A stretch of DNA of 51,546 nt from an uncultured Bdellovibrionales bacterium (GTDB lineage: Bacteria; Patescibacteriota; Minisyncoccia; Moranbacterales; UBA1568): NCBI GenBank assembly GCA_964617535.1, contig CAZTYU010000005.1:6096-57641 (forward strand). The letters are read 5' to 3'. Below are positions 37,364 to 51,047 of the stretch, piece after piece. Under the pieces are notes generated by a model. That model was not told the DNA's origin, searched no databases, and was given only the letters and a program-made list of their open reading frames with translations. The translations under genes and the position numbers were made by a program. Each line of letters opens with the position of its first letter. The stretch's first letter is position 1.

Positions 37364-37603
37364 ACAATAGTAGTGTTTTTTTCAGTATAACAGTACTTTT
37401 GGTATGAATTTGAAAACGCGTCAACCCATCAACAAGTAGCATACTCCTACAGCACCAGATTCGCATCAGAGATACAGAGAATGGAAACTGGAAAAATCAA
37501 ACATCAAAATCATTCTTCGCTTTCATTTTTGAATTTTACCCTGTCACTTTCCATTTTGATATTTACATTTTGATACCGAGCCGTATCAAAGGCACGGCGT
37601 TCT

Positions 37604-40600
37604 CTAACGGCCCGAGTTGTACAGCGCTTGCACCTCAGCTGCCGAAAGCGCCCGATTATAGACACGCACTTCGTCGATGAGTCCGTTGAAGTTATTGCTC
37701 GTATTGCCCTGGCCCTCCATCCCGATGCGCGTGCCGGCACCGCCGGTATACGATATCGAGTTGGTATAGCTCGTCGTCTTCACGGCCGTGCCATCGACAT
37801 ACAGCACCTGAGTATTGGCCGTATCGTCAAAGGTATAGGCGTAGTGGTGCCAGCCCGTACCGGCATAATAGGTCAGATTCGAAGTCTGATTCCAAGTCGT
37901 CCCGTCATAGTAGAACCCGGTCAGCCCGCCCGGCGAGGTAGAGTCGAGGTCGATCGCCACTTTATCCCCGAGGCTGATGAGCGTCGCGCCGCTCGTATCG
38001 GCCGAATTCAGCTTGGCCCAGCCGGCGACGGTGATATTGGCCGGACTGCTGAAGAGTCCCGAGACCGCCACATAGTCGTCCGTTCCGTCGAGACTCACTC
38101 CCTGCCCGAGCTTACCGATCACCTTTGTCGGGCTGTTGGTCAACGTACCCGTATTCCCCGCTCCGCTCCGGTCATAGGCGGTCGTCGCGGCCATGTCTTG
38201 ACCATTGAACGACCAGTAACCGACGAGTCCCGTATCCGTCCCGGTCGGTGCAGAGAGACGATAGAGCTGTGCAACTTCGTCAGCCGAGAGGACACGACTA
38301 TAGATTCTTACCTCGTCAAGCTGACCGCTATAATAATCCGACGCGTCAGGGTAGCGACCAACCGAAAGTTGGTTACCCGCATCGCTCTGTCTACCAGTTG
38401 CGTTTCCGCTACTATCTGCACTCGTAGGAGATCCGTTCACGTAAAGCCGCATGTTTGTTGTGCTATCCCCGTCTTGCGAAGCACACACATGTGTCCACTG
38501 ACTGAAAGGGACGACAGCTCTATTGGCCTCAATATACCCCGATGAACTCGTTCCCTTAAAGCTCGTTCCGATCCCGTGACCACCTGTATAGCCGTTTATG
38601 AGGTACAAGTCCCAGCCAGAAGTTAATCCTACATTAAACGTATTCACAACCCCCGGAAACGAGGATCCATTATCTATGGGATTCACCCAGGTACAAGCGG
38701 TGAATCGAGAAAGGTCAGTAAAGGCCGATGAGCTAGACGCACCGATATAATCATTCGTTCCATCGAAACTGACTGCACTCCCGATCTGTCCGGTCGTCCA
38801 GGTCGGACCATTGGTCAGTGTCCCCGCATTTCCATTTACGCTCGCATCGCTCGCACTCGTCCCCGAACCATCGTCGAGCTTCCAGTATCCGACGAGACCA
38901 CTGTCGGCGCGGCCTGTCCCCTGTGGGGTCGAGACGCTGGTATTTGTTTTGTCCGGTGTGCCGATGTCATAGAGAGCTTTCACCTCCGCTGTCGAGAGCG
39001 CCCGGCTATAGAGCCGCGTCTCATCAATCCGCCCGTCAAAATAATTCAATCCGAGCCCCCCGCTCCCGCCGCCGCCGGTGTAACTGTTCAGGTTGGTACC
39101 GGAGTATGCAAGTGTTGAGGCATTTGCAGAGTTCTCGAGAACCCCGTCAACATAGAGACTCATCGTCGTACCGTCGAAAGTAACTACCGCATGGTGCCAG
39201 CCGCCGACGATATTCGTCGAACCAGTGATCGTCCCAGCCGATGGATTTGTACCATCCCCCCAGCGCACGACGTACGGACCGCTCGTCGCCGTGTCGTCCG
39301 CCTGAGAAAGTGACCAGCCATTGTCCCAGCCTGAGTCGGAATAAGAGGGGTTAAAGATAAGCCGGTACGTAGTCGCATCGCCCGTATCCGCATACGTCCA
39401 AGTCGAAAGCGTGAAATTGGTCGGCTTCAGCACTGCGCTGTTCGAGTTGTCGACATAGTCGTTCGTCCCATCAAAATTGAGTGCCTGCCCGACCCGGCCG
39501 ATACCCCGCACAGCACCGGAAAGCGTCCCTGTGTTGCGGCTGCCGCTTCGATCAAAGGCCAGTGTACTGGTCATGTCCTGCGCGTTCATCGACCAGTAGC
39601 CACGGAGACCTGTATCAACGCCCGTTGCTGCCGTCTGGTTATAGAGCATGATCACGTCCTCAGCCGAGTACGCCCGGTCATAGATACGGATCTCGTCGAG
39701 ACTCCCAGCAAACTGCAGTCCTGCCCCGGGCGTATCGCCGATCGAGAGCGCTATCGTATTGGCAAGCGTCCCGATATTGCCTATCGTGCCACTATCGGTC
39801 GCGGCCAAAGGTAGACCATCGACATAAATTTCACTGTTGGCCGGGCTGTCCTGGTCCCAGACTGCGACAAAGTGGTGCCACCCGGCGCTGGTAATTGCAT
39901 AGCCGTTCGCAGCAACGGAATAGGTGTCCGTACCATCGAAAACCTCGAGGTTGAGCGCATCAGCCGAGTCGTCAATGTAGACCCGATATCCAGGGTTCGT
40001 GCCATCCCATTTACTCACGATTGCATCGACGGTCGTATAGGTCGATCGATTGAACCAGCCAGCTATCGTCATATCGTCCGTATCGCCGAAATCGAGCACG
40101 CCGTTTGCCGGGTCCGAGAGCGCGATATAGTCATTGGTCCCATCGAACGTAACAGCCGATCCGATTCGGCCCGTTCCCCAGGTCGGCCCGTTCGTCAGCG
40201 TCCCGGCGGCGGTCGCATTCACGCTTGCGTCGGCAGCACTCGTCCCTGTCCCTTCATCTAGCGGCCAGTAGCCGACAAGGCTGGATTCAGGATTCCCTGA
40301 GCCGGCCGGTTGGGCAGCACTGGTGTTTGCTTTGTTCGCACTCCCAGCATCATAGAGTGACTTTACTTCGCTCGCGGTGATGATGCGGTTATACACCCGC
40401 GCCTCATCGATCACGCCGTCAAAGAGCTCGCCCGGCGTCCCAGTATTGTTGTATGCGCCGATATACATATCCCCCGTTGCTTCGCTAGAGGCAGTACCAA
40501 CGGGCGCCTGATTTTCATACGTTGTGGTCAGCGCACCATTCACATAAAATACCGGATCGTTTGCGACCGACGAATTGTTATATGTGACACAAACATGCGA

Positions 40601-41836
40601 CCACTGATTATAGGGTATCGTTGTCGTACCAAACCACCACCCCGCTGTCGTACTGAATGTTCGATAGAACGAGATTCCAAGGTTTGAAAAAGTAGAGTAG
40701 TCCAAAAGCATTTGCCAACCAAGTCCGGAGTTATTGTATTTGGTCGTAATATCGCCGTAAGTGGTGAGCGAACTATTCGGCTTCACCCAGGCGCAGGTCG
40801 AGAGGTTCACGATATCGTCGACGATCGCACCCGACCCGGCATTCACATACTGCGTACTGGCTGAGGCAAAGTTCAGCGCCTGGCCGATTTTCCCTACCGT
40901 CTTTGTTGGCGTGTTCACAAGCGTGCCGGTGTTGCGCCCACCCGATCGGTCGCTGACGAGCGTACTGCGGAAATCATCTGCCCCGAACGCCCAGTACCCG
41001 ACGAGTCCCGTGTCTACCCCGGTCGGAGCCGTCAGTTTATAGAGGTCATTGATCTCGGCCGGTGACAATGCGCGGTCGTAGACGCGTGCCTCGTCGATGA
41101 GGCCATCAAAGGGGTTGCCGTTATCGCTCTCGGCACCGAGCCGGAATGCGACCGCGTTGGACAGATCACCGATGTTCCCGATCGTGCCGCTTTTCGTCCC
41201 ATTGTCATCGCGTCCATCGATATAGACTTCGACATTGGTCGCGCTGTCCTGGTCCCAGACGAAAGCGAAATGATGCCAGCCAGCCGAAGTGAACGAGGTC
41301 GCCGAGGTGATAGAATACTCATCCGTCCCATCGGACACTTCGAGCGCGATGAGGTCAGTCGTGTTGTCGATATTCACGATATAACCGATATCAGCCGCCG
41401 TATTGCTGTTGCGTTTGGCCACGACTGTATCAATAGTATTGAACGATGTCGTGCGGTTGAACCAGCCCGTGATCGTGATATCGTCCGTATCCCCGAAATC
41501 GAGCGTCGCCGTATCCGCCGTCGTCGCATAGTCATCCGTCCCGTCAAAATCGATAGCCGAACCGATTTGTCCCGTCGTCCAGGTCGGACCATTGGTGAGC
41601 GTCAGCGCGGTGATAGTATTAACGCTCGCATTAGCAGCGCTCGTCCCCGTCCCCTCGTCGAGTTTCCAGTATCCGACCAGCCCCGCCCCGAGCCCACCAT
41701 CACCGACCTCGGGGCCCGCATTCGTATTCACCTTCACCCCGGCACGCACGGCGAAATACCAGTAGCCCCCCGCTAATAATGAAAGGGCGACAATAATTCC
41801 CAGCCACTGCCATGTGCGACTACTGGTGTGTGTCAT
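37604..41836 (-). CDS. Giant membrane-anchored surface protein with six LamG/concanavalin-A-like (Laminin_G_3-type) domains, paralogue 1
   Basis: Six units each run from ..GL(V/R)GYW.(L/F)(D/N).. through TLTNGPTW..GQIGSA..FDGT(N/D)DY ... WHH ... (Y/F)(V/I)(D/N)G ... to (I/L)DE(V/A)R(V/I)Y.RALS..E(V/I)..LY. The signal anchor is MTHTSSRTWQWLGIIVALSLLAGGYWYF. I prefer the ATG at 41836; the track start at 41866 translates a conserved repeat element. Confidence 0.88.
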   Translation of the reverse strand: MTHTSSRTWQWLGIIVALSLLAGGYWYFAVRAGVKVNTNAGPEVGDGGLGAGLVGYWKLDEGTGTSAANASVNTITALTLTNGPTWTTGQIGSAIDFDGTDDYATTADTATLDFGDTDDITITGWFNRTTSFNTIDTVVAKRNSNTAADIGYIVNIDNTTDLIALEVSDGTDEYSITSATSFTSAGWHHFAFVWDQDSATNVEVYIDGRDDNGTKSGTIGNIGDLSNAVAFRLGAESDNGNPFDGLIDEARVYDRALSPAEINDLYKLTAPTGVDTGLVGYWAFGADDFRSTLVSDRSGGRNTGTLVNTPTKTVGKIGQALNFASASTQYVNAGSGAIVDDIVNLSTCAWVKPNSSLTTYGDITTKYNNSGLGWQMLLDYSTFSNLGISFYRTFSTTAGWWFGTTTIPYNQWSHVCVTYNNSSVANDPVFYVNGALTTTYENQAPVGTASSEATGDMYIGAYNNTGTPGELFDGVIDEARVYNRIITASEVKSLYDAGSANKANTSAAQPAGSGNPESSLVGYWPLDEGTGTSAADASVNATAAGTLTNGPTWGTGRIGSAVTFDGTNDYIALSDPANGVLDFGDTDDMTIAGWFNRSTYTTVDAIVSKWDGTNPGYRVYIDDSADALNLEVFDGTDTYSVAANGYAITSAGWHHFVAVWDQDSPANSEIYVDGLPLAATDSGTIGNIGTLANTIALSIGDTPGAGLQFAGSLDEIRIYDRAYSAEDVIMLYNQTAATGVDTGLRGYWSMNAQDMTSTLAFDRSGSRNTGTLSGAVRGIGRVGQALNFDGTNDYVDNSNSAVLKPTNFTLSTWTYADTGDATTYRLIFNPSYSDSGWDNGWSLSQADDTATSGPYVVRWGDGTNPSAGTITGSTNIVGGWHHAVVTFDGTTMSLYVDGVLENSANASTLAYSGTNLNSYTGGGGSGGLGLNYFDGRIDETRLYSRALSTAEVKALYDIGTPDKTNTSVSTPQGTGRADSGLVGYWKLDDGSGTSASDASVNGNAGTLTNGPTWTTGQIGSAVSFDGTNDYIGASSSSAFTDLSRFTACTWVNPIDNGSSFPGVVNTFNVGLTSGWDLYLINGYTGGHGIGTSFKGTSSSGYIEANRAVVPFSQWTHVCASQDGDSTTNMRLYVNGSPTSADSSGNATGRQSDAGNQLSVGRYPDASDYYSGQLDEVRIYSRVLSADEVAQLYRLSAPTGTDTGLVGYWSFNGQDMAATTAYDRSGAGNTGTLTNSPTKVIGKLGQGVSLDGTDDYVAVSGLFSSPANITVAGWAKLNSADTSGATLISLGDKVAIDLDSTSPGGLTGFYYDGTTWNQTSNLTYYAGTGWHHYAYTFDDTANTQVLYVDGTAVKTTSYTNSISYTGGAGTRIGMEGQGNTSNNFNGLIDEVRVYNRALSAAEVQALYNSGR

Positions 41837-41860
41837 ACAGTTCGACCCGTTAGAGACAGG

Positions 41861-41963
41861 TCCCACTTAGAATCCATCCAATTCATTCGATGGTTGTGCT
41901 GGTCCACTATTCGTTTTTCTGATACGTATTGAATCATCGTCAGTATATTTTGGATTCTAACGG
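41861..41963. mobile_element. 103-nt AT-rich MITE-like insert with 10-bp terminal inverted repeats, flanked by direct GACAGG
   Basis: TTAGAATCCA (41867..41876) pairs with TGGATTCTAA (41951..41960). GACAGG occurs at 41855..41860 and again at 41964..41969. The equivalent junction upstream of LamG-2 (46483..46500) lacks the insert. Confidence 0.3.
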
Positions 41964-42118
41964 GACAGGAAGCGTTTCAATCGATTCTTGAGATAGCGTT
42001 TGCCCATACCCGTCTTCAGATACTTTTCCCGATTGAAAGCGTCATGCGCATCGATACAGACTTCATAGTAGATAATATCGAATGGTCCTCGACCCTTGGT
42101 GGATACTACCTTTCCATA
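41957..42118 (-). pseudogene. 5'-truncated GIY-YIG nuclease gene remnant (C-terminal 53 codons)
   Basis: My translation is YGKVVSTKGRGPFDIIYYEVCIDAHDAFNREKYLKTGMGKRYLKNRLKRFLSR*. It aligns with residues ~32-84 of the intact ORF 46470..46739. The GIY and YIG motif region and the start codon are missing. Confidence 0.75.
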
Positions 42119-42124
42119 TCTTTC

Positions 42125-42133
42125 ATTATAGCA
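42125..42133 (-). promoter_or_regulatory. Extended -10 promoter element TGCTATAAT (minus strand) downstream of the LamG-2 stop
   Basis: Part of a 16-nt block CTTGCTATAATGAAAG (reverse complement of 42120..42135) that is repeated identically at 46845..46860. Confidence 0.45.
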
Positions 42134-42210
42134 AGAACCGCCTGTCTTCCTTTAGGCCGTTAGCGGAAGGTACCGCGGACGACTGAAATCGTGCTAGGGA
42201 CTCGGCGTTC

Positions 42211-45200
42211 TTAACGGCCTGAATTATACAATGCCCCGATCTCGCTCGCCGAGAGAATGCGACTATACGCCCGCACTTCATCGATCGCGCCGGTAAAGGC
42301 GTCCGGTCCGTCCGGCACCGATCCGATGCGGGTTTCGGCAGTAGCATCGGTCCCATAGGTCGTACAGCCCGCTAGTGACTCCGAGAAACTCCCATTGGCA
42401 TACAGATCTGTCGAAGTCGTTGTGACAACCAAGGCGAGGTGTGTCCACTCATTCGTCGGCGGCGAATAGTCAAAGGTGAGAGTAGTCCCCGAACCACAAT
42501 TGAGGGTTACTTCGCCTGTCCCTGAATACAAGAGAAAACCGAAACGCATATCATTACTCGCAAAGGTATCGCGCTTCGCGATGATGGTGCCGAAATCAGA
42601 AAAGTTCGTCGGCTTCACCCAGCTCGTGAGTGTGAAGGAAGCCGTAGAAAAATCAAAAGCGGTGCCAACACTGATGTAATCATTCGTCCCGTCAAAGGTC
42701 ACTCCTTGGCCCAGCTTGCCGCGCGCAACAGTCGGTCCATTCGTCAGTGTGCCATCGTTTCCCGCTCCGCTCCGGTCATAGGCCGTCGTACCAACGGTAT
42801 CCTGCCCATTGAACGACCAGTAGCCTTTCAGACTCGTATCGGTCCCCGTCGGCACGCCGAGGCTGTAGACCTGGCGGATCTCATCGTCCGAGAGCACGCG
42901 GCGATATACCCGGACCTCGTCAATCAATCCGGAAAAGGCTACTGTCGAGCCTGGTTCATCCCCGATAGCCAGATCCATCCCAGCGGTACTGCTCCGGGCG
43001 GCGCTTCCTGCACTATCAGTCGCCGCCACCAAGGAGCCGTTCTGATAGAGCCGGAAACCCGAGCCCGATGTGCCCACCTGGACACCGCAGATATGGGTCC
43101 ATGAGCCCGTCGGCAGTCCACTTGTTCTTTCCGCGTAGACATTTCCGTTGTACGATGTCCCGAAACCGAGATTGCTATCGACCTGATCGATATAGAGGTC
43201 CCAATAGGCCGCTCCGCCGCTGTACCGGCTGACGATGTTGCCATAGTTGTGGGTATCATTGCCATCCGGATTGACCCAGGCGCAGAGCGTAACATCGATG
43301 ATGTCATCCAATGACGCTGGATTGGAGACAAGGACATGGTCGTCCACACCATCGAAATCCACCGCGCTGCCGATCCGGCCCGTCCCCCATGTCGGACCGC
43401 TCGTGAGCGTCCCGGCAGAAAAAGCGTTCGCACCGGAATCCGCCGCGCTCGTCCCGGTTCCCTCGTCGAGCTTCCAATAGGCGGCCAGATCCGAATCAAG
43501 CCGGCCGGTCCCCTGCGGCGTCGAGACGCTCGAGTTCACCTTGTCCGGTGTGCCTCGGTCGTAAAGCGCCTTGATCTCAGCAGCTGACAGGACGCGGCTA
43601 TAGGCACGGGCTTCGTCGATCTGGCCAGACCAAAAAAGCCCGCCGTGACCGTTGCAGTTCCCACCGATTTCCACAGCATTGGATGTCGAGGTAAGCGCCC
43701 CGCCCGCCCATGCGGTCGTAGTATCTAGCCTGCCATCGACATAGATGAGGATCGTCGACCCGTCATAGGTGAACGTCGCCATGTGCCACTCGCCATCATT
43801 TACATCAATCGCTCCCTCTACGACTCCGCTGACCGTCGAGCCGTTCGCGAGATAGACCGCTACTTTTCCGACCGTAGAAAAATTCACTCCGAAGTCCACG
43901 GGCCCATCCCCGGATGTCCCCCCACAAAAAGATTTGTCGATGAAGTGCTTCTCGGTCGTCGCCGTCGTCTTGATCCAAGCAGACCAGCTCGTCGTCGTGA
44001 GTCCGTCGAGCGCATCAACATCGCCCATCGTGATATAGTCATTCGCTCCGTCGAACTGGATCGCTTGGCCGACGCGCCCGCGTACTGCTACCGGACTACT
44101 GGTGACCGCACCCCAGTTACCCAAACCACTCCGATCGTATACACCCCATGAAGTCAGTGAGGCTGAAGTATCCGATCCATCAAGTGACCAGTAGCCGCGG
44201 AGACCGGTATCGATGCCACTTGTCTGAACTGTCGCGCGGTAGAGCAAATTAACGTCAGCATTCGTTAGCGGTCGAGTATAGACCCGTACATCGTCGAGCT
44301 TGCCATCAAACGGATTGCCACCATCACTCTCGGCACCGACCGTAAAAGCCAGCGTGTTCGCGATATTGTCCACGTAGTGCAGATAGGAGGCGCAACTTCC
44401 GGTATCGGTGACATCTACACCATCGACAAATATCCTCGGGCACTGGAAGAATCCGCTCGGATTGAGGTATTCATCAAACATCACAACGAGATGATGCCAG
44501 CCCGTCGTCGTATAGGTAGTCGTCGAAGTGGACTGCGATATGTCAGGCGTATTGGTCGTCGATTGCACCTTGGCATAGATTTTGTCGTCCACGTCGTCGA
44601 TGTAGACGACATAGCCGTCACCCGTCGCCGGGTCATCTTTCTTTGCGACGAGAGTGTCATCGGTCGTCGCGGTATCGCGATTGAACCAGAGCGAGACACT
44701 AAAGATGTCACCATTCCCGTTGTCGCTCGGCAGGGCGAAATCGAGTATCCCGCTCGCCGGGTCGGCGACCGCTACATAATCATTTGTCCCGTCGAAATCG
44801 ACCGCACTCCCGATCTGCCCGGTGGTCCAGGTCGGTCCGTTTGTGAGCGTTCCATCGTTTTGACCGACGCCCTTGTCGTCCGCGTTCGTCCCGGTCCCTT
44901 CGTCGAGCGGCCAGTAGAGAGCGAGGCCAGCTGCGAGGTCGCTGCCGCCCTGCGGCTGCGTCCCGCCGGTATTCGCGAGATTCGGTGTACCGCGATCATA
45001 CAGCGCCTTGATTTCCGCGGCGGTAAAGAGGCGATTATAGATCCGCACCTCATCGATATTTCCGTCGAAGAAATTCGACACCCCGTTATCATAGCTCCCG
45101 ATATTGACATCCATCGGCGCATCGCTCTCCATCGTTCCCGATGGAGACTGTGTCTCGGTCACTGCAACCGACACGGCATTGATATAGACAGTCGGATCAT

Positions 45201-46473
45201 TGGCAGTCGAGGTCCGATTGTACACCATGCAGAGATGCGTCCACTTATTTTTTGGCAGACTGCCGGTCGCCGTATTCCACTGTGCATAGCCCAAACCCCC
45301 GCTCCAGCCGCTGAACACTGTAAGCAGTTCATTGGCTCCATCCGCCATGAATTGCCACCCGGTCGATGAAGCATCTTTCGCGACAAGCGTTCCATCGCCA
45401 GCGTCCTCTACGTTTGCCCAGAGACAGACCGTCAAATTCGAGATGTCATCGAGGTTCGCTGGGGAACCCATCCCGATATAGTCATCCACCCCGTCGAAAC
45501 TCATCGCTTGGCCGACCCGGCCTGCAATCGGCGTCGGGGCCGGCAGCGTTCCCGTTCCGAACGGCGTCCCTCGATTTGCCCCACCGCTCTGATCATAGAC
45601 ATAATCGCCGCGCTCCGTAGCGTCGAACGACCAGTAGCCTTTCAAACTCGTATCGACCCCGGTCGGCGATGTGAGACGGTACAGCTCGGCTGCCTGTTCG
45701 GCCGTAAAAGCCCGGGTCGGATAGTACCGCACCTCGTCGATCTTGCCGTCGAACGGGTTGCCGCCGTCGCTCTCGGCGCCGATACGCTGCGCCAGCGCAT
45801 TCCCCACCGGCTCCATATCGTTGATATTGCCGGTCACCGTCGGACTGTCGGGCAGGCCGTTGATATACATGGTCAGATCACCGCTACTTGGCGACATGGT
45901 GACGACGAAATGATTCCAACCCGTCGCCGTAAAGGTCGATGTCGAAGCGAGCTGATATTCGTCTACCCCATCGGAAAATTCAAAGATAAGCAGATCCGTC
46001 GCATCGTCGACATACACTACATAGCCATCTTCTGCTGCTGTAATGCCATTTCTCTTTGCAACGATCGTATCGTCCGTAGTAAAAGTGTCACGGTTGAACC
46101 AACCAGCGATGGTAAAGCGCGATCGCTCCAGCGCGAGCTCGAGCGGATCAGCATCCGGGGCGGTCACATAATCGTTCGTTCCGTCGAAATCCAACGCATA
46201 ACCGATCTGACCAGTCGTCCAGGTCGGACCATTGGTGAGCGTACCCGTCGCACCATTCACGCTCCCGTCAGTCGTACTCGTCCCGGTGTTTTCGTCGAAT
46301 CTCCAATACGCGGCGAGGCCATTCGCCGGATCGTTCGCCCCAGCTGTCTGGCCCGCTGTCGTGTTCGTCTTCACCCCGGCGCGCACCGCAAAATACCAGT
46401 AGCCCGCCCCCAACGTAATCAGGACGAGTATGATTCCTAGCCACTGCCATGTGCGACTGCTGGTGTGTGTCAT
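42211..46473 (-). CDS. Giant membrane-anchored surface protein with six LamG-like domains, paralogue 2
   Basis: 1,420 aa with the same (A/B)x3 LamG architecture and the signal anchor MTHTSSRTWQWLGIILVLITLGAGYWYF. Its start codon overlaps the GIY-YIG stop (ATGA at 46470..46473). Confidence 0.9.
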   Translation of the reverse strand: MTHTSSRTWQWLGIILVLITLGAGYWYFAVRAGVKTNTTAGQTAGANDPANGLAAYWRFDENTGTSTTDGSVNGATGTLTNGPTWTTGQIGYALDFDGTNDYVTAPDADPLELALERSRFTIAGWFNRDTFTTDDTIVAKRNGITAAEDGYVVYVDDATDLLIFEFSDGVDEYQLASTSTFTATGWNHFVVTMSPSSGDLTMYINGLPDSPTVTGNINDMEPVGNALAQRIGAESDGGNPFDGKIDEVRYYPTRAFTAEQAAELYRLTSPTGVDTSLKGYWSFDATERGDYVYDQSGGANRGTPFGTGTLPAPTPIAGRVGQAMSFDGVDDYIGMGSPANLDDISNLTVCLWANVEDAGDGTLVAKDASSTGWQFMADGANELLTVFSGWSGGLGYAQWNTATGSLPKNKWTHLCMVYNRTSTANDPTVYINAVSVAVTETQSPSGTMESDAPMDVNIGSYDNGVSNFFDGNIDEVRIYNRLFTAAEIKALYDRGTPNLANTGGTQPQGGSDLAAGLALYWPLDEGTGTNADDKGVGQNDGTLTNGPTWTTGQIGSAVDFDGTNDYVAVADPASGILDFALPSDNGNGDIFSVSLWFNRDTATTDDTLVAKKDDPATGDGYVVYIDDVDDKIYAKVQSTTNTPDISQSTSTTTYTTTGWHHLVVMFDEYLNPSGFFQCPRIFVDGVDVTDTGSCASYLHYVDNIANTLAFTVGAESDGGNPFDGKLDDVRVYTRPLTNADVNLLYRATVQTSGIDTGLRGYWSLDGSDTSASLTSWGVYDRSGLGNWGAVTSSPVAVRGRVGQAIQFDGANDYITMGDVDALDGLTTTSWSAWIKTTATTEKHFIDKSFCGGTSGDGPVDFGVNFSTVGKVAVYLANGSTVSGVVEGAIDVNDGEWHMATFTYDGSTILIYVDGRLDTTTAWAGGALTSTSNAVEIGGNCNGHGGLFWSGQIDEARAYSRVLSAAEIKALYDRGTPDKVNSSVSTPQGTGRLDSDLAAYWKLDEGTGTSAADSGANAFSAGTLTSGPTWGTGRIGSAVDFDGVDDHVLVSNPASLDDIIDVTLCAWVNPDGNDTHNYGNIVSRYSGGAAYWDLYIDQVDSNLGFGTSYNGNVYAERTSGLPTGSWTHICGVQVGTSGSGFRLYQNGSLVAATDSAGSAARSSTAGMDLAIGDEPGSTVAFSGLIDEVRVYRRVLSDDEIRQVYSLGVPTGTDTSLKGYWSFNGQDTVGTTAYDRSGAGNDGTLTNGPTVARGKLGQGVTFDGTNDYISVGTAFDFSTASFTLTSWVKPTNFSDFGTIIAKRDTFASNDMRFGFLLYSGTGEVTLNCGSGTTLTFDYSPPTNEWTHLALVVTTTSTDLYANGSFSESLAGCTTYGTDATAETRIGSVPDGPDAFTGAIDEVRAYSRILSASEIGALYNSGR

Positions 46474-46739
46474 GTAGTTCGACCCGTTAGAGACAGGAAA
46501 CGTTTCAATCGATTCTTGAGGTAGCGTTTGCCCATACCAGTCTTCAGGTACTTTTCACGATTGAAGGCGTCATGCGTATCGATACAGGCTTCATAATAGA
46601 TGATATCAAACGGCCCGCGTCCTTTGGTAGACGCTACTTTTCCATCGTTATGTTCTTTGAAACGCTTCCGCATGTCTTCGGTACAGCCAGTGTACCATTT
46701 GCCGTCTTTTTGGCTCGCGAGGATGTAGACGTACTGCAT
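46470..46739 (-). CDS. GIY-YIG (URI-domain) nuclease family protein
   Basis: 89 aa. YVYILASQKDGKWYTGCTEDMRKRFKEHN ... NREKYLK carries the GIY/YIG beta-hairpin, a conserved Arg and the catalytic Glu, as in the YhbQ/COG2827 type. Hand-counted GC is about 45-47 % on lines 46561 and 46621, against about 58 % in the flanking LamG genes. Confidence 0.88.
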   Translation of the reverse strand: MQYVYILASQKDGKWYTGCTEDMRKRFKEHNDGKVASTKGRGPFDIIYYEACIDTHDAFNREKYLKTGMGKRYLKNRLKRFLSLTGRTT

Positions 46740-46755
46740 AGCTGTCTCTAACGGG
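46483..46755. mobile_element. GIY-YIG cassette bounded by perfect 14-bp inverted repeats (putative selfish or invertible module)
   Basis: CCCGTTAGAGACAG at 46483..46496 and its exact reverse complement CTGTCTCTAACGGG at 46742..46755 enclose essentially the whole ORF. The low GC contrasts with the surroundings. Confidence 0.4.
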
Positions 46756-46825
46756 GCAAGCGAATCAACCCAAAGGCCAGAAGTATGCCGATGTATTGGA
46801 TGGTACGAGAACGAGTAAGGGTCAT
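46748..46825 (-). pseudogene. Collapsed LamG-gene remnant (25 codons: signal-anchor start joined to a ...PR-stop end)
   Basis: My translation is MTLTRSRTIQYIGILLAFGLIRLPR*. It resembles the LamG-3 N-terminus (MSAYSLTRSRTFQYVGILLIL). It ends in CCCGTTAG, like the ...GGCCGTTAG termini of the LamG ORFs. Confidence 0.5.
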
Positions 46826-46849
46826 GTATGTCGATTTTCAGTACCTTTC

Positions 46850-46858
46850 ATTATAGCA
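46850..46858 (-). promoter_or_regulatory. Extended -10 promoter element TGCTATAAT (minus strand) just after the LamG-3 stop
   Basis: Same 16-nt block as at 42120..42135. It is positioned to drive the remnant, the GIY-YIG ORF and LamG-2. Confidence 0.45.
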
Positions 46859-46865
46859 AGGCGAG

Positions 46866-49800
46866 CTACTTCCCAGAGCTGTAGAGCGCCTTGATTTCAC
46901 TTGCCGAAAGTTCTCGGTTATACACCCTTACTTCGTCCAATTTCGTATTGAGAAAATTTCCATAGTTCGTATCATTCTGCCACTGCGCGCCGATTGCGAA
47001 TCGCCCGCCGGTTGTCCCGAGCGGGCTTTGTGGCGTGCCGGTCGTCGGTACTAAAACACCATCAATATAAAGCTTTGCCGATGAACCATTTCGTGTGACA
47101 ACAACGTGGCGCCAACCAGACGAAAGTGTCGCTGATCCGATGACGCCCGTCGAAGAACAGCCCGATTCCGCAAAGGTGACCGAGGTGCTATCCACATCTA
47201 TCCGCGGATTATAGAAGCACCCTCCGGAATTGCCCCGCATAAGCGGGCTGCCTGTCGCTGAACCGGTCTGATTTACCCAAAACGCCACCGAATAGAGCGT
47301 CTGCTCGGTCGTATAATCGCCGAGCGCAATATAATCGTCCGTTCCATCAAATTGGAGCGCTTGGCCAAGCTTGCCCCACTTCACGGCTGGGCCACCAGTC
47401 AGCGTGCCGTCATTCCCCGCGCCGCTTCGATCATAGGCCGTCGTGCCACTCATATCCTGGCCGTTGAAACTCCAGTAACCCTTCAGCCCCGTATCGGTCC
47501 CAGTTGGCGTTCCAAGCCGGTAGAGCTGCCCCACCTCGTCCGCCGAGAGCGTGCGTCTATATATCCTGACATCGTCAATGAGGCCGTTGAAGTAGCTCGC
47601 GCCACCGCCAGACCAGCACCGACCGATGGTGATATTTGATTCGGTATTTACGGTCAATGCACTCGAGCTCGATTCGACAATCTTGGTCCCGTCGAGATAA
47701 ATGCTATTTGTTGTTCCTTGGTTCGTATATACCACATGGTGCCAGGTTGTGCCGAGGCCGGTTACTTGAGTGGAAACATACCCGCCAGTACCCGAAGACC
47801 CAAAGATGAGGTTCTCCGTACCTGTATTGTCATAGAGGAGACACTGATGATTCGAGCCCTCCTCTCCATTGATCTGACCGATTATCGGCATACCATCGAC
47901 AGCCGCATCTCCCTTTACCCAAGCTGCGACCGTAATCGAATCCGCCGAAACGAGTGTCGTCCCGAGACTGATGTAGTCATCAGTCCCGTCGAAGTCCACC
48001 GCGCTCCCGATCTGCCCCGTCGTCCATGTCGGTCCATTGGTGAGCGTCCCGGTAAAGCCGTTCGTACTCGCATCGGCCGCGCTCGTCCCAGAGCCCTCAT
48101 CGAGTTTCCAGTAGCCGGCGAGGCCTGAGTCGAGCCGACCAGTACCCTGTGGAGTCGAGACGCTCGTATTTGTCTTGTCAGGAGCGCTCGCATCATACAG
48201 CGACTTGATCTCGGCTGCGGTGAGAGCACGAGAGTATATCCGAACTTCGTCGATTAGAGCATTGGCATTTCGAGCGCTGGGATCAGAAACATCTGTACCA
48301 ATCACAAAGTCTGAAGAATTGGAAACTGATCCAGAGGGAGTTTCTGTATCAACTACGACACCATCAATATAGAAAGACATAGCACTCCCTGAGCGGACAC
48401 CGTAATAATGGTGCCATTGATTATCATTCGTTGTTGCTACAGTTGCCGTAGCATAATAGTCGGTCGTACCATTGCCGACAAAGAAAGACATGGTATTCGT
48501 ACTATCGTAAAGAAAAGCATACCCAGCTGAGTTAGGTGAACTGATGGGCTTCTTGGCGAGAGGAATATTGGCTGAACTCCCCTGACTCGAGTAGCCCCGT
48601 CCCTTCATCCAAAAACCGACTGAGAAGTCCCCCGAGCCGAAATCGAGGATGCCCGATGACGGGTCGCCCATCGTGATATAGGCATCCGTATCTGATCCGT
48701 TCGGGAAAAAGTCGAATGCCTGTCCCACGCGCCCTCCTTTCACCGCAGGACTATTGGTTATCGTCCCATTGTTTCCTGCGCCGCTCCGATCATAGGCCGT
48801 CGTACCGGATATGTCTTGGCCATTGAACGACCAGTAGCCCTTGAGGCTCGTATCGACGCCCGTCGGGGCAGTCAGGCGGTAGAGCTGAGCCACTTCATCT
48901 GCCGAGAGGATGCGGTCGTACAGGCGTGTCTCATCGATTTTCCCAGAATAATAGTCTTGGACTCCACCAAAGCTCCCAAGATACCCAGTAGTCGCCGTTG
49001 CGTCATCTACCGCTCCGGTGGTCGTTGTGCTCGATCCAGCCAGTGCGCCATCAATGTAAAGGGTTGCTCCAACCGCATCATCCCAGGTTGCTGTCAGATG
49101 ATGCCAGCCTTGATACTCCGAGGTGCTCGTATACGTCGGGCCGGCTACATCAGCATACGTTCCATAACTGCCGCGATAGAGCAATTCCCAGTGGTTATAC
49201 CCCACGGAGCAGCTGTTGAATTGGAGCTGCACATGGCTCCCCGGGGTCTCTGCCGCGAAGACGTTGCTATACGTACAGAGACTCAGAGCCTCGGTCGTAT
49301 TGACCCATGCCGATATGGTTCCTTTACGTGGGATCTTGGTCGCAAAAGATACATGGTCATTCGTCCCGTCAAAATTCACCGCGCTTCCGATTTGCCCAGT
49401 CGTCCAGGTCGGACCGTTAGTGAGCGTACCATTGTTGGCATTGACGCTTTTGTCGGCCGTACTCGTACCGGTGTTTTCATCAAAGGGGAAATACGCAAAG
49501 AGGCCGGAGTCAAGATTGCTTGTCCCCTGTTTCTGTCCCGCACTGGTGTTCGCCCTGTCAGGGCTGCCACGGTCATAAAACGACTTAATTTCATTTGCCG
49601 AAAGCGCGCGGTTGTAGACCCTTACCTCATCGAGGTTACCATTGAAAAATGCATCTGAAGCCGGACCACGAGTACCCAGTTTTGCGGTATAGGTTGAGGT
49701 TGCATATCCGCCACTAGTCGAATCGGAATTTGCGGTACTCGATTGAAGAATACCATCTGCATAGATCAGAAAACTATTGCTCGCATACGAGGTCGTGTTT

Positions 49801-51047
49801 GTCGTGATGACAAACGCGAAGTGATGCCACTGATTATCATTAAATCCGGTTTGAACTGATAGCCTACCTGATTGTCCACCATCACTGTTTTTAATCGTAG
49901 CCGTTAATCTTCCGCTTGTATCACCATCGAGACCGACATACCACCCGTCAGGAATATATCCTCCTTGTGAAATGAAGACTCCTCCCGTTGCAGAGGGGGC
50001 AGATTTGAACCAGCCCGTAGCAGTAAACGTGGTATTGGCGAATTGGTAAGGTGTGCTGACACCTAGATCGACATAATCATCCGTCCCGTCGAACTGGAAC
50101 GCTTGGCCAGCGCGACCATCAGTCACGGTTGGACCATTCGTGAGTGTCCCAGTATTTCCCGCGCCGCTCCGATCATAGGCGTTCGTCCCGGACACCGAAT
50201 CGCCATTAAACGACCAGTAGCCTTTGAGTCCCGTATCGACACCTGTCGGAGCAGTCAGGCGATAGAGCGACGAAACTTCGTCAGCCGACAGGGGCCGATC
50301 ATAGACGCGAACCTCGTCCAGCTTACCGTTAAAGTAGCCGGTAGCCGAATTAGTGCTGCCGATATACATCGTCCCTGATCCGGATGGGTACCCGCCCGCG
50401 ACCGTATCGGTACCCGTCGAATCAAGCGCCCCGTTGATATAAAAAGACACATTTGGCTTATCGAAAGTGGCCGCCACGTGCACCCACTGCCCCGCCGCAA
50501 CTGCTCCAGTTGAATATACAAACGCTCCGCCACCTCCCTGGTGGGACATTAGCTTTGTTGACGAACCATCGTGATAGAGCGCCAGCCCGTAGTAGGTATT
50601 GGAATCACCAGACGAATACTTTCGGACTATCTGGTACGTGGTGCCATTGGTCATGGTGCCATCGATATAGACCCAGGCAGCAACTGTCTTCTTGTCCTTT
50701 ACAATCGGGGTATCGCCCGTGCCAGCCGTTATATAATCATTTGTCCCGTCGAAATCGACCGCGCTCCCGATCTGCCCAGTGACCCAGGTCGGGCCATTGG
50801 TCAGCGTCCCGGTATTGCCATTGGTACTCGCATCCGCCGCGCTCGTTCCGGTGTTTTCATCGAGCTTCCAGTACCCGGCTAGTCCGGCAGAGAGGTCGCC
50901 AGTACCCTGTAACTGACTGCTGCTCGTATTTGTCTTTACGCCCGCGCGCGCAGCGAAATACCAACAGCCCGCGGCGAGAGCAGCCAGAATAAGCAGTATT
51001 CCTACGTACTGGAAGGTTCGCGATCGGGTGAGGGAGTATGCAGACAT
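46866..51047 (-). CDS. Giant membrane-anchored surface protein with six LamG-like domains, paralogue 3
   Basis: 1,393 aa with signal anchor MSAYSLTRSRTFQYVGILLILAALAAGCWYF, six LamG units and the same C-terminal ...LDEVRVYNRELSASEIKALYSSGK. Confidence 0.9.
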   Translation of the reverse strand: MSAYSLTRSRTFQYVGILLILAALAAGCWYFAARAGVKTNTSSSQLQGTGDLSAGLAGYWKLDENTGTSAADASTNGNTGTLTNGPTWVTGQIGSAVDFDGTNDYITAGTGDTPIVKDKKTVAAWVYIDGTMTNGTTYQIVRKYSSGDSNTYYGLALYHDGSSTKLMSHQGGGGAFVYSTGAVAAGQWVHVAATFDKPNVSFYINGALDSTGTDTVAGGYPSGSGTMYIGSTNSATGYFNGKLDEVRVYDRPLSADEVSSLYRLTAPTGVDTGLKGYWSFNGDSVSGTNAYDRSGAGNTGTLTNGPTVTDGRAGQAFQFDGTDDYVDLGVSTPYQFANTTFTATGWFKSAPSATGGVFISQGGYIPDGWYVGLDGDTSGRLTATIKNSDGGQSGRLSVQTGFNDNQWHHFAFVITTNTTSYASNSFLIYADGILQSSTANSDSTSGGYATSTYTAKLGTRGPASDAFFNGNLDEVRVYNRALSANEIKSFYDRGSPDRANTSAGQKQGTSNLDSGLFAYFPFDENTGTSTADKSVNANNGTLTNGPTWTTGQIGSAVNFDGTNDHVSFATKIPRKGTISAWVNTTEALSLCTYSNVFAAETPGSHVQLQFNSCSVGYNHWELLYRGSYGTYADVAGPTYTSTSEYQGWHHLTATWDDAVGATLYIDGALAGSSTTTTGAVDDATATTGYLGSFGGVQDYYSGKIDETRLYDRILSADEVAQLYRLTAPTGVDTSLKGYWSFNGQDISGTTAYDRSGAGNNGTITNSPAVKGGRVGQAFDFFPNGSDTDAYITMGDPSSGILDFGSGDFSVGFWMKGRGYSSQGSSANIPLAKKPISSPNSAGYAFLYDSTNTMSFFVGNGTTDYYATATVATTNDNQWHHYYGVRSGSAMSFYIDGVVVDTETPSGSVSNSSDFVIGTDVSDPSARNANALIDEVRIYSRALTAAEIKSLYDASAPDKTNTSVSTPQGTGRLDSGLAGYWKLDEGSGTSAADASTNGFTGTLTNGPTWTTGQIGSAVDFDGTDDYISLGTTLVSADSITVAAWVKGDAAVDGMPIIGQINGEEGSNHQCLLYDNTGTENLIFGSSGTGGYVSTQVTGLGTTWHHVVYTNQGTTNSIYLDGTKIVESSSSALTVNTESNITIGRCWSGGGASYFNGLIDDVRIYRRTLSADEVGQLYRLGTPTGTDTGLKGYWSFNGQDMSGTTAYDRSGAGNDGTLTGGPAVKWGKLGQALQFDGTDDYIALGDYTTEQTLYSVAFWVNQTGSATGSPLMRGNSGGCFYNPRIDVDSTSVTFAESGCSSTGVIGSATLSSGWRHVVVTRNGSSAKLYIDGVLVPTTGTPQSPLGTTGGRFAIGAQWQNDTNYGNFLNTKLDEVRVYNRELSASEIKALYSSGK

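Follow-up and report, generated by a model that had tools for sequence, protein, structure and literature searches.

A GIY-YIG nuclease gene framed by inverted repeats in a LamG gene array is probably a resident copy of a widespread, very small mobile element

The GIY-YIG nuclease gene located between two large LamG genes and the inverted repeat which frames it very probably represent one resident copy (copy A) of a widespread mobile element of approximately 275-280 bp, with the nuclease as its presumed mobility enzyme. The window, i.e. the whole stretch of 51,546 nucleotides analysed here, contains this intact copy, one truncated copy (copy B) and one mini-element. All parts of the layout described in an earlier note on this DNA (an extended -10 box, a 25-codon ORF, a perfect 14-bp inverted repeat, an 89-aa GIY-YIG ORF and an ATGA overlap) are indeed present on the minus strand (Table 1), and the nuclease ORF has the low GC content noticed there (0.467 vs 0.560 for the window). 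The interpretation given in that note is, as a whole, partly supported. As judged from the homologous loci, the 14-bp repeat is not LamG-specific; a very widespread mini-element carries it as the core of its terminal inverted repeat (TIR). The proposed tie of the cassette to LamG genes is incidental; most family members adjoin unrelated genes (ychF, tpiA, pilin genes and many others), and at such loci the ORF is found together with its inverted repeats, the opposite of the repeat-less occurrence which the note had considered.

Table 1. Positions of the element copies, related sequences and neighbouring genes in the window
Feature	Position	Strand	Basis or remark
Whole mini-element, copy A, 275 bp, YCCCG…CGGGR	46482..46756	-	family-wide conservation limits and filled/empty site alignments
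Left TIR, C + CCCGTTAGAGACAG, 2 nt 5' of ATG	46742..46756	-	CCCGTTAGAGACAG at 46742..46755, then ct, then nuclease ATG at 46739
GIY-YIG nuclease ORF, 89 aa	46470..46739	-	Pfam PF01541, E=8e-15
Right TIR, CTGTCTCTAACGGG + T, codons L-S-L-T-G	46482..46496	-	CTGTCTCTAACGGG at 46483..46496, exact reverse complement of the left 14-mer, within the last nuclease codons
ATGA stop/start overlap, nuclease ORF/LamG-2	46470..46473	-	
25-codon ORF MTLTRSRTIQYIGILLAFGLIRLPR*, probable fossil of a LamG-3-type 5' end	46748..46825	-	stopped by a TAG of the left arm (…LPR*)
TGCTATAAT, putative extended -10-like box	46850..46858	-	read from sequence
LamG-2, 1420 aa, 6 Laminin_G_3 domains, host gene downstream of copy A	42211..46473	-	
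LamG-3, 1393 aa, upstream neighbour of copy A	46866..51047	-	stop at 46866
Copy B, 5'-truncated nuclease gene (residues ~33-83)	41966..42117	-	tblastn 94 % aa identity; 87 % nt identity
ORF-less mini-element, 105 nt, TCCCGTTAGAATCCA…TGGATTCTAAGTGGGA, within the right arm of copy B	41861..41965	-	bordered by a CCTG duplication (41966..41969 and 41857..41860)
Rest of the right arm of copy B, TCTCTAACGGG	41846..41856	-	then LamG-1 ATG at 41834..41836
Second TGCTATAAT box, junction B	42125..42133	-	
LamG-1, 1410 aa counted from the ATG, host gene following copy B	37604..41836	-	
Arm-like inverted repeat GGCCGTTA…TAACGGCC, LamG-2 3' end	42155..42219	-	read directly
Solitary left-arm-like sequence CCGTTAGAGAA at the LamG-1 stop codon (…GR*)	37600..37610	-	

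With up to two mismatches allowed, the 14-mer occurs three times in the window (0.24 expected), and the same pairing is found at the same positions in 75 of 80 independent homologous loci, so the repeat does not owe its existence to chance. In these 75 loci, which are spread over at least eight phyla, a perfect inverted repeat of at least 10 nt (median 14 nt; shuffled mean 6) encloses one ORF only, which encodes a GIY-YIG nuclease of 86 aa; Patescibacteria and Omnitrophota are the main hosts. The left arm CCCGTTAGAG… precedes the ATG, and the right arm …CTCTAACGGG provides the last codons (L-S-L-T-G). The TIRs comprise 13-19 bp and have the consensus YCCCGTTAGAGAn … nTCTCTAACGGGR. Conservation reaches background 7 nt outside each core, on both sides alike, and together with the alignment of filled and empty sites this places the TIRs at the exact insertion boundaries; the ends of copy A were defined in the same way. 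In copy A the usual stop codon is lost, and three extra codons lead to the ATGA of LamG-2. The N-terminus of the 25-codon ORF resembles that of LamG-3 (SLTRSRTFQYVGILL). Its PR-stop end had been taken for LamG-type, which it is not, because the left arm encodes CCC CGT TAG in this frame; the same end is present on Pgk at another family locus (…LTDKPR*, L054).

Evidence for mobility was obtained from sites with and without the element. In ychF orthologues with 94-87 % identity the synteny is kept and the nuclease gene is absent, and in the alignment the filled site reads ATGAGT[278 bp]ATGAGT, while the empty loci have a single ATGAGT (three sites aligned with DNA, L090-L092, 90-87 %; two more without DNA). 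At the pgk-tpiA locus, removal of the element and one TAAA regains the Pgk C-terminus of the orthologue (…LTDK*); this case is a reconstruction, and directly aligned empty sites come from one locus only, ychF. Since the duplication overlaps the outer inverted repeat, its exact length is ambiguous (4, 5 or 6 bp), with 4 bp being most likely. Identical 4-mers flank the element in 30 of the 75 loci (14 % in the shuffled control); the other 45 have none, among them copy A, which is flanked by CTTG and CGAA. Two copies in one single-cell genome (L042 and L046) are 95 % identical and have unrelated flanks. Further, ORF-less mini derivatives of 25–125 nt with the same ends are common: besides the one in the window, approximately 19 mini-elements or hairpins with family arms were detected in approximately 450 kb of flanks, where by our estimate about 0.04 would be expected by chance. 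At the level of sequence, these comparisons establish the family as discrete mobile insertions with a short target duplication, located at unrelated sites in many phyla.

Almost always, the element has the same orientation as a host gene and lies 0-15 nt from its start codon. In 51 of the 75 loci a co-oriented host ORF starts at a distance of 15 nt or less, in 27 of these with an ATGA overlap, and some elements lie in frame within prepilin leaders. It appears that the elements insert at host start codons and that the host gene is not silenced. At many CPR loci, the nuclease takes its start codon from the left copy of the duplicated target ATGA(R), and the right copy supplies the nuclease stop together with the host ATG; the host gene would therefore still be translated by stop/start coupling.

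The two arms show strong covariation. Positions L+9/R-9 are complementary in 99 % of cases with three pair types (36 % expected), positions L-3/R+3 in 92 % (43 % expected), and L+7 and L+8 are compensated even where the Ser codon changes, until the pairing ends abruptly at L+10. In the right arm, the third codon positions (CTA, ACG) are 100 % invariant in 74 loci, at a family-wide pS of 0.76. The covariation could equally reflect selection at the RNA level. If the inverted repeat was mainly an mRNA device, in which the 14-bp stem loops out the ORF, masks its ribosome-binding region and brings upstream signals of the host next to the host start codon (or creates an RNase III site), the covariation would mean RNA pairing and not DNA recognition. 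In line with this, the RNA MFE fold pairs both arms and closes the ORF, the left arm is separated from the ATG by 1-13 nt (mostly 2-10), at the usual place of a Shine-Dalgarno sequence, the co-orientation and adjacency with host start codons are strict, and 15 G·T pairs occur at L-4/R+4 on the sense strand. However, the overall z-score of the fold is only -1.6, no Rfam family matches the element, the ORF-less mini-elements retain complementary ends although there is no ORF to regulate, and the last conserved bases on either side fall on the insertion boundaries, as for DNA ends. A mainly regulatory repeat, which would be compatible with mobility of the element by other means, seems unlikely to us.

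The LamG array contains further traces of the element. Copy B lacks a start codon and the left arm and differs from copy A with a pN of 0.025 and a pS of 0.52. The 14-mer occurs in exact form a third time 5' of LamG-1 (41846..41859); like copy B, this occurrence was missed in the earlier note. The two LamG paralogues have homologous flanks around the cassette, and a 16-nt box (cttgctataatgaaag) around TGCTATAAT recurs at junction B; a scan for -35/-10 promoters did not call the box upstream of copy A. The left half of the inverted repeat at the 3' end of LamG-2 provides the LamG-2 stop codon, and this repeat is possibly a decayed mini-element. No element is present at the 5' end of LamG-3. Concerning the history of the locus, the element would have landed in a LamG-3-type 5' end, of which the 25-codon …LPR* fossil remains, and now lies ahead of LamG-2. 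The unit may then have been duplicated together with the LamG array, and the copy at LamG-1 may later have lost its 5' half and been struck by the mini-element. Arm-like sequences mark four boundaries of LamG genes in the window, and element relics at several LamG gene boundaries bear on the suggestion in the earlier note that the nuclease could stimulate recombination within the array; the sequence itself contains no direct evidence of recombination at the arms.

The nuclease has more than 3100 homologues and looks functional according to its sequence and structural model. PF01541 spans residues 2-68 of the 89-aa protein, AF2 models the protein as one compact domain (pLDDT 88.9), and Y5, Y16, R26, H30, E62 and N76 are invariant or nearly so and match the catalytic set of I-TevI by pattern. 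The best sequence match is 1zg2 (UPF0213, E=1.4e-10), B. subtilis yazA is approximately 39 % identical, and Foldseek matched the model to UPF0213 (closest), Slx1 (TMq ~0.6) and I-TevI (1ln0). GIY-YIG nucleases are typically multi-domain according to PMC11893778; in the protein of 86-89 aa studied here, no DNA-binding or other extra domain was detected.

Copy A is identical in six of the seven assemblies compared, shows no sign of recent movement among them and is common to another species. The layout of remnant, element and LamG gene is also found in the Moranbacteria loci L008/L009 and in L010, the fossil being kept in L008/L009 as MSLTRYRTYQYIGLILGALAIASPR*, and the comparison with L008 yields a dN/dS of 0.16 for the nuclease. 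Judged by these comparisons, copy A is old and under purifying selection, and a Moranbacteria MAG has it as well. A host function acquired by domestication would likewise account for the strong purifying selection and the long residence; the cassette would then have ceased to be selfish, or never have been so. Such a host nuclease would resemble the Ssn nucleases (SsnA, cd10448; Chenal et al. 2025, PMC11893778), described there as site-specific ssDNA nucleases with NTS/SRM repeats, which cluster near surface-protein genes and modulate transformation. It would cut ssDNA at arm or hairpin repeats and modulate recombination, transformation or repair, including diversification of the LamG array. 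This Ssn precedent, the ancient residence in Moranbacteria, the arm-like sequences at the four LamG boundaries and the predicted Slx1-like fold are in favour of domestication, but the empty sites, the target duplication, the recent intragenomic copies and the spread across phyla reveal mobile behaviour of the family, and the host contexts are mostly housekeeping genes and not surface arrays. We therefore regard domestication as improbable, and a mobile element remains our preferred explanation.

The earlier note had also proposed a selfish homing-type cassette. A selfish mobile insertion is well in line with the TIRs, target duplication, empty sites, copies and mini derivatives, but not a classical homing gene. 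A free-standing GIY-YIG homing endonuclease would cut the empty allele or a paralogue (the LamG 5' region) and be copied by recombinational repair, with the repeats being incidental. The GIY-YIG domain, the homologous flanks of the two LamG paralogues and weak similarities to group I intron endonucleases (TIGR01453, 26.3 bits, far under the cutoff of 56) and to a PHROG homing endonuclease (E=0.006) could point in this direction. However, the protein is very short and has no DNA-binding domain, and homing predicts neither TIRs, target duplication and mini derivatives nor many unrelated sites; insertion with target duplication at non-homologous sites is already indicated by the ychF sites and by L042/L046. 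This makes homing a quite improbable explanation.

About as improbable is a passenger cassette moved in trans by an unlinked transposase which recognises the CCCGTTAGAG ends, with the nuclease as cargo, e.g. a toxin or defence gene. A target duplication of 4 bp is typical for some DDE IS families, and GIY-YIG enzymes are without known transposition catalysis. On the other hand, the C-terminal codons of the nuclease contain the right arm and co-evolve with it, the pairing of ORF and ends holds across at least eight phyla, the window revealed no transposase, and the related Ssn nucleases bind their own flanking repeats, as stated in PMC11893778. Finally, the inverton-like switch suggested by the perfect 14-bp repeat, with a promoter-like box on one side and a surface-protein gene on the other, in which arm-arm recombination would flip the 273-bp segment and uncouple LamG-2 from the promoter, is highly improbable: no inverted orientation was detected among the seven independent assemblies compared, throughout the family the element keeps one orientation towards the host gene, a scan of 27 window ORFs revealed no invertase or other recombinase, and the same arms flank the nuclease gene ahead of housekeeping genes.

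For the mobile element, we propose that the nuclease is its own mobility enzyme, which would recognise the arm-arm stem in single-stranded DNA and cut just outside of it, by analogy with the Ssn hairpin nucleases and with the Slx1 fold, which is structure-selective. In the mRNA, this stem may also tune translation. Against this explanation, we know of no strand-transfer or ligation chemistry of a GIY-YIG hydrolase. In the literature searched, no description of a GIY-YIG element of approximately 275 bp was found. It is tempting to speculate, at slightly less than even chances, that the family constitutes a new class of autonomous prokaryotic transposable elements and the smallest one known (approximately 275 bp), in which an 86-aa GIY-YIG nuclease is encoded in the loop of its own hairpin and cuts at the ssDNA stem, and which borrows the host start codon, hands translation back via ATGA and uses sites in prepilin leaders. 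If so, the borrowed start codon and the ATGA overlap would make the element harmless for its host, and in Omnitrophota and relatives, where it lies in frame in prepilin leaders, the prepilin peptidase would free the pilin at the regenerated G|FTLIE.

Among known systems, the UPF0213 (YhbQ-YazA) proteins and the Slx1 domain are the best sequence and structure matches of the nuclease. A conserved basic C-terminal helix with LSLTG at its end is peculiar to the element family. To our knowledge, the UPF0213 and Slx1 proteins are encoded by single-copy host genes for which flanking TIRs are not reported. With the GIY-YIG homing endonucleases (I-TevI, Seg) the element shares the catalytic fold, the selfish insertion beside or inside conserved genes and an expression compatible with the host gene. 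Those enzymes have 200-300 aa with separate DNA-binding domains and spread by homing without TIRs or target duplication, while the element has both and uses unrelated insertion sites, and its TIGR01453 score is below cutoff.

Like insertion sequences and MITEs, the element has TIRs, a short target-site duplication, presence/absence polymorphism, several copies per genome and ORF-less derivatives. It differs by the lack of a DDE, HUH, serine or tyrosine transposase, its sole protein being the GIY-YIG nuclease, by the location of one TIR inside the ORF and by the stem-like covariation of distal TIR positions. Moreover, its size is far below that of any autonomous IS known to us. With IS200/IS605 and REP/RAYT it has in common a small enzyme and hairpin-forming repeats which also occur as ORF-less copies; recognition of ssDNA hairpins is, for the element, only proposed. 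Their Y1 HUH enzymes act via covalent intermediates, in contrast to a GIY-YIG hydrolase, and IS200/IS605 elements have subterminal hairpins and neither TIRs nor target duplication, both of which are present here.

The closest known system is Ssn/NTS, to which the element family is related by sequence, although it fails the defining repeat motif. The statement in the earlier note that no system of this form had been described therefore needs qualifying, since a relative with a comparable repeat-gene-repeat layout, Ssn/NTS, has been described (PMC11893778), and the authors of that paper point out the IS-like layout and the likeness to IS200/IS605 and REP/RAYT. Both systems have a small single-domain GIY-YIG protein of approximately 90 aa, a gene framed by inverted-repeat DNA, and stems with a similar beginning, A[TC]CCCG. 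The Ssn repeats also occur elsewhere as short hairpins, for which the mini-elements in the searched flanks and in the window may be a counterpart. In its catalytic core the nuclease is homologous to an NTS-flanked Azospirillum member, with 38 % identity over 65 aa (pairwise E=9e-14), and it is equally close to UPF0213. In hhalign this match has a probability of 97 % over columns 1-70 only; the C-terminal third is unaligned and unrelated (…KRYLKNRLKRFLSLTG in the element family versus …KKWNRDWKIRLIEE.NPDW in Ssn). The SRM pattern HGTCWYN(0-2)YYVSBRHN(0-5)WNVSBRGN(0-2)RNCYNB has no match in the window and none within 500 bp of 74 family loci, while in the positive control L088 four matches flank the gene, and the mini-elements in the searched flanks of family loci also differ from SRM in sequence. 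According to PMC11893778, Ssn nucleases bind to a hairpin, with the ssDNA cut lying a few nt upstream of it, and their genes have complete hairpins of approximately 28 nt per flank, whereas the element has one half per flank with the gene in the loop, and its right arm is coding. As far as that text goes, the hosts of Ssn are Pseudomonadati, in contrast to the main hosts of the element, and the insertion boundaries, the target duplication and the placement at start codons and in prepilin leaders are features of the element that are undescribed for Ssn.

Reading of the minus strand between 46200 and 47100 together with the ORF list confirmed the order described in the earlier note, in which the LamG-3 stop is followed by the TGCTATAAT box, a 25-codon remnant, a 14-mer, the ATG of the nuclease, the inverse 14-mer and an ATGA overlap with LamG-2; every item of that description is present. 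The low GC content of the nuclease ORF was also borne out (0.467 vs 0.560 for the whole window). Both LamG neighbours are six-domain Laminin_G_3 proteins. With up to 2 mismatches allowed, the 14-mer occurs three times in the window, while 0.24 occurrences are expected.

Positions of the features discussed, in window coordinates
Feature	Position	Strand	Basis or detail
LamG-3	end at 46866	-	ORF list
TGCTATAAT box (extended -10-like)	46850..46858	-	direct reading
25-codon ORF, MTLTRSRTIQYIGILLAFGLIRLPR then stop	46748..46825	-	ORF list
Copy A, intact element	46482..46756	-	275 bp
Left 14-mer CCCGTTAGAGACAG, 2 nt 5' of nuclease ATG	46742..46755	-	direct reading
Nuclease ORF, 89 aa	46470..46739	-	PF01541 (GIY-YIG), E=8e-15
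Right 14-mer CTGTCTCTAACGGG, exact reverse complement, within last codons of ORF	46483..46496	-	direct reading
LamG-2, ATG overlapped by nuclease TGA	42211..46473	-	ORF list
Arm-like sequence at LamG-2 stop codon	42155..42219	-	GGCCGTTA...TAACGGCC; left-arm-like GGCCGTTAAG..., matching TAACGGCC 49 nt downstream
Second TGCTATAAT box	42125..42133		LamG-2/LamG-1 junction
Copy B nuclease fragment	41966..42117	-	residues ~33-83; 94 % aa, 87 % nt identical to copy A
105-nt insert splitting copy B right arm	41861..41965	-	own arms TCCCGTTAGAATCCA...TGGATTCTAAGTGGGA; CCTG duplication either side
Third 14-mer copy	41846..41859		directly 5' of LamG-1 ATG
Arm-like sequence at LamG-1 stop codon	37600..37610	-	CCGTTAGAGAA / left-arm-like GGCCGTTAGAGAA
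Gene of CBM6/CBM35/beta-helix protein	33674..37363		1229 aa
300-nt direct repeat	34586..34885 and 35564..35863		100 % identical, spaced 978 nt
Methylase region	17858..20009		C5 cytosine DNA methylase (18654..20009), ORF of 267 aa (17858..18661)

The inverted repeat belongs to the nuclease gene family and not to LamG. We found more than 3100 homologues of the nuclease, the best 120 of which share 72-92 % identity and mostly measure 86 aa; their C-terminus ...KRFLSLTG is almost invariant, and the right-hand 14-mer corresponds to its last codons. A scan with one genome per species yielded at least 549 loci, from which 80 were retained for analysis (Patescibacteria, Omnitrophota, Elusimicrobiota, Planctomycetota, Desulfobacterota, Nitrospirota, Clostridia and others; handles such as L008 denote these and further loci from other genomes). 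In 75/80 loci the bases just 5' of the ATG form an inverted repeat with the last codons that is perfect over 10 nt or more (median 14); for shuffled upstream sequences the mean was 6 and the maximum 11. When the loci were anchored on the invariant cores, conservation extended from 7 nt beyond the left core to 7 nt beyond the right core, with background outside, and these symmetric limits are the ends of the element. The host gene next to it varies between loci and is at most of them not LamG, so that the proposed tie of the 14-mer and the nuclease to LamG genes was rejected. No family member was found in viral contigs (IMG/VR), and the plasmid collection held distant relatives only (~39 %).

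The element thus delimited has terminal inverted repeats (TIRs) as arms, a target duplication, site polymorphism, mini derivatives, covarying arms and a placement at host start codons with stop/start overlap. The selfish cassette considered in the earlier note stands: this is a mobile insertion with empty sites, target duplication, recent copies and mini derivatives. In two Saccharibacteria (L060, L066) the ychF start is precisely where the cassette is inserted. Five YchF orthologues (94, 92, 90, 87 and 87 % identity) have kept the neighbour gene and lack the nuclease gene, and their gap measures 110-155 bp vs 388 bp in L060. Alignment of three of these empty loci (90, 87 and 87 %) with the filled sites showed ...ACGT ATGAGT TTATC... 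when empty and ...ACGC ATGAGT CCCGTTAGAACC...GGTTCTAACGGG ATGAGT TTATCC... when filled. In one empty-site genome, an IS200-like Y1 transposase gene (PF01797; L090:2382-2984) is located directly downstream of ychF. At the filled pgk-tpiA site of Omnitrophota, Pgk ends with ...LTDKPR-stop; removal of the element and one TAAA gives GAT AAA TAG gATG and ...LTDK-stop, which is the C-terminus of the Pgk orthologue in L093, and L094 has a compact empty junction. The same spot that holds the element in Omnitrophota L054/L083 is occupied in L095:479-862 by another small gene (Pfam 23S_rRNA_IVP family), which hints at a recurrent landing site of small selfish genes.

Flanking 4-mers are identical in 30/75 loci when the ends are set at YCCCG...CGGGR, vs 14 % in the shuffled control (TGAA 18, TGAG 5, TCAA, TTTA and TAAA 2 each, CTGG 1). 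A 4-bp target-site duplication with these ends fits best for ychF, pgk-tpiA, the pilin sites and the mini-element in the window, and 5-6 bp (ATGAR/ATGAGT) are still compatible. In one Elusimicrobiota single-cell genome, two elements (L042, L046) are 95 % identical and have unrelated flanks; the next most similar element shares 77 %. In addition, about 19 mini-elements without an ORF were found in the flanks of the 80 loci, compared to ~0.04 estimated by chance; they measure 25-125 nt and have CCGTTAGAnnn...nnnTCTAACGG as their ends, with matching distal bases (mini-elements or hairpins at L016, L017, L019, L022, L024, L025, L026, L051, L055, L061, L072, L074, L077, L078 and L086). The shortest, of 27 nt in L026 (CCGTTAGAGAATTGTGTTCTCTAACGG) and 25 nt in L078, amount to plain hairpins and resemble REP/NTS repeats in this respect. 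Elements also occur in tandem or nested (L034:1-400, L016:900-1500), and in L034 one element is joined by its right end to the left end of its neighbour (...ATCTCTAACGGGGTAAACCCCGTTAGAGAT...), resulting in a perfect long palindrome.

Copy A, the intact element in front of LamG-2, is an ordinary, old copy of this family. Here the canonical stop is lost (GGG TCG AAC...), and the ORF is extended by 3 codons to the ATGA of LamG-2; the same loss is seen in L008/L009 and L010. A LamG-3-type remnant ending with ...PR-stop, followed by the element and a LamG-2-type gene, is a layout found twice in a Moranbacteria MAG (L008/L009) and also in L010, with an element identity to the window of 83 % at the nucleotide level. 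Because the layout is common to these loci at considerable divergence, the arrangement in the window was inherited and is not recent. The dN/dS of 0.16 vs L008 indicates purifying selection on the nuclease. Seven independent assemblies of this organism have the cassette in one and the same orientation, six of them being 100 % identical at the locus and the seventh 97 %; the suggested inverton-like switch failed as an inverton and was rejected. The 25-codon remnant was only in part what it had been taken for. Its N-terminus does resemble that of LamG-3 (LTRSRT[IF]QY[IV]GILL), whereas LamG-2 and LamG-1 start with MTHTSSRTWQWLGI, but its PR-stop is not of LamG type: here the upstream ORF reads into the left arm, CCC CGT TAG. 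An identical 16-nt box, cttgctataatgaaag, which contains TGCTATAAT, is located 5' of both LamG junction cassettes. The TGCTATAAT boxes were not called in a sigma-70 promoter scan since there is no -35, and a promoter role would rely only on the literal consensus match. An Rfam search of 41700..47000 revealed no relevant RNA family, the single miRNA match (E=0.35) being due to chance.

The LamG-2/LamG-1 junction harbours copy B, of which only the 3' part of the nuclease gene is left, without start codon and without left arm. The 105-nt insert in its right arm is one of the mini-elements of the family. Most differences between copies A and B are synonymous (pN 0.025, pS 0.52), and thus the duplication of the unit is old while the truncation of copy B is comparatively recent. 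LamG-2 and LamG-1 end with ...SGR-stop, their stop codons lying inside left-arm-like sequences, whereas LamG-3 ends with ...SGK-stop; possibly, the arm-like sequences are decayed mini-elements which reshaped the LamG C-termini. At the LamG junction we thus see no novel LamG-specific switch but a place, rich in fossils, where a general element has landed. Elsewhere in the window, the CBM6/CBM35/beta-helix protein, which also has an N-terminal T4SS-pilin-like domain, contains a 300-nt direct repeat within its gene, suggestive of a domain duplicated internally very recently or of a collapse in the assembly. The C5 cytosine DNA methylase gene overlaps an ORF without Pfam match, a possible restriction-modification pair.

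The two arms are kept complementary throughout the family. The paired arm positions L+9/R-9 are complementary in 99 % of the loci (T·A 36, C·G 20, A·T 18), with 36 % expected under independent assortment, and L-3/R+3 in 92 % (expected 43 %). Changes at L+7 and L+8 are compensated on the opposite arm even where a Ser codon becomes Thr, Ala, Val, Phe or Ile, and the complementarity ends abruptly at L+10. In 74 loci the Leu (CTA) and Thr (ACG) codons of the right arm do not vary at their third positions, while synonymous sites in the rest of the gene are saturated (median pS 0.76). The maintained pairing and these invariant positions show that the right arm is constrained as nucleic acid beyond its coding function. 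Mismatches were also compared with regard to RNA or sense-strand pairing vs duplex identity; G·T was counted 18 times and A·C 9 times, an asymmetry dominated by one position and therefore favouring neither mode clearly. The arm stem is predicted in the mRNA as well, where it may have an additional effect on translation.

In 51/75 loci a host ORF on the same strand, 60 aa or longer, begins no more than 15 nt from the right arm, and in 27 of these 51 its ATG overlaps the nuclease TGA. In CPR-type loci the left flank is ATGA(A/G)T, and in 16/27 such loci its ATG is in frame with the nuclease (MNPVRE.../MSPVR...), the internal ATG missing in several, since the host start codon is part of the duplicated target, as at ychF. 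In a duplication of this type, the left copy provides the nuclease start and the right copy the nuclease stop and the host ATG. At many CPR loci a TATAAT-like box is present only 6-12 nt 5' of the left-end ATGA(R)T of the element, which suggests that leaders are very short, so that the element would capture the first start codon of the host.

In Omnitrophota/Ratteibacteria (L062:2935-3633; L022:2356-4312), the element is inserted in frame inside pseudopilin genes at the prepilin-peptidase site, reading ...KERG/FTPLE...nuclease...SLTG/FTLIEIML..., where the slash marks the site. The left arm TTTACCCCGTTAGAG encodes FTPLE, a mimic of the pilin motif FTLIE. In L022 the prepilin-peptidase site is occupied in three consecutive pilin-like genes, by a mini-element, a full element and a decayed one. 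Judged from these sequences, the invariant C-terminal Gly of the nuclease family would be the -1 Gly of the prepilin cleavage site, which suggests that the host peptidase could free the pilin from the nuclease fusion.

The AlphaFold model of the nuclease (pLDDT 88.9) has a β-β-α-β-α fold and a long basic C-terminal helix. Structurally it is closest to UPF0213 BH0048, to the Slx1 nuclease domain (TMq ~0.6), Slx1 being an enzyme that acts structure-selectively on branched DNA, and to the catalytic domain of I-TevI; the nearest solved structure by sequence is 1zg2 (E=1.4e-10). Invariant or near-invariant residues include Y5, Y16, R26, H30, E62 and N76, which by their pattern we take to correspond to the I-TevI catalytic set. 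Purifying selection acts on a nuclease that seems catalytically intact. NCBIfam and PHROGs gave sub-threshold similarity to homing endonucleases only, and a homing endonuclease was rejected, as there is no DNA-binding domain, TIGR01453 scores 26 bits vs a cutoff of 56, and TIRs and target duplication are present. Probably, the arms form a stem in single-stranded DNA which is recognised by the nuclease, and movement would begin with a cut of each strand just outside this stem.

These observations are important for several reasons. If the nuclease truly mobilises the element, GIY-YIG would be a new enzyme class among the few prokaryotic transposition catalysts. The element accounts for thousands of genes annotated without function as 'GIY-YIG nuclease family protein' in CPR/Patescibacteria, Omnitrophota and other uncultured phyla, and its mobility explains their horizontally transferred look. 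It is also a source of mis-annotation, such as host ORFs ending with ...PR-stop, N-terminal 'MNPVRE' extensions and fused pilin-nuclease genes. Last but not least, the family supplies a pool of nucleases which are very small and for which the cognate DNA stem is defined, the property that also favours Ssn enzymes as ssDNA tools.

The Ssn system is the sole close description that we found; otherwise the literature searched contained nothing on a TIR-flanked GIY-YIG cassette, and the family appears to be undescribed. According to Chenal et al. 2025 (PMC11893778), Ssn are small single-domain GIY-YIG proteins (cd10448) whose genes have ~28-nt hairpin repeats (NTS/SRM) on both sides, with further copies of these repeats scattered over the genome; the enzyme binds an ssDNA hairpin, cuts a few nt upstream and works with the stem halves on separate oligonucleotides, and NTS-ssnA-NTS was likened by its authors to an insertion sequence. 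As a proxy for SsnA we used the Ssn-type GIY-YIG gene WP_014249537.1 between sufB and sufC on the Azospirillum lipoferum plasmid AZO_p3 (L088:1354-1972), which has two canonical near-perfect NTS hairpins (CGTCATCCCCGCGAAGGCGGGGATCCAG) on each side, in inverted pairs. The catalytic core of the window protein is 38 % identical to this proxy (E=9e-14; hhalign probability 97 %), and its C-terminal third does not align. The published SRM/NTS motif occurs neither in the window nor in any of 74 family loci. Thus, the family is probably a relative of Ssn in its workings, but by its repeats it is a non-member. It differs from Ssn in that the gene lies inside the hairpin loop and one arm is coding, and in that insertion boundaries and a target duplication can be demonstrated. 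If the nuclease is the mobilising enzyme, the family would be a natural, testable case of the IS-like behaviour only hypothesised for Ssn/NTS. In its structure, the element corresponds to insertion sequences and MITEs in everything except the class of transposase.
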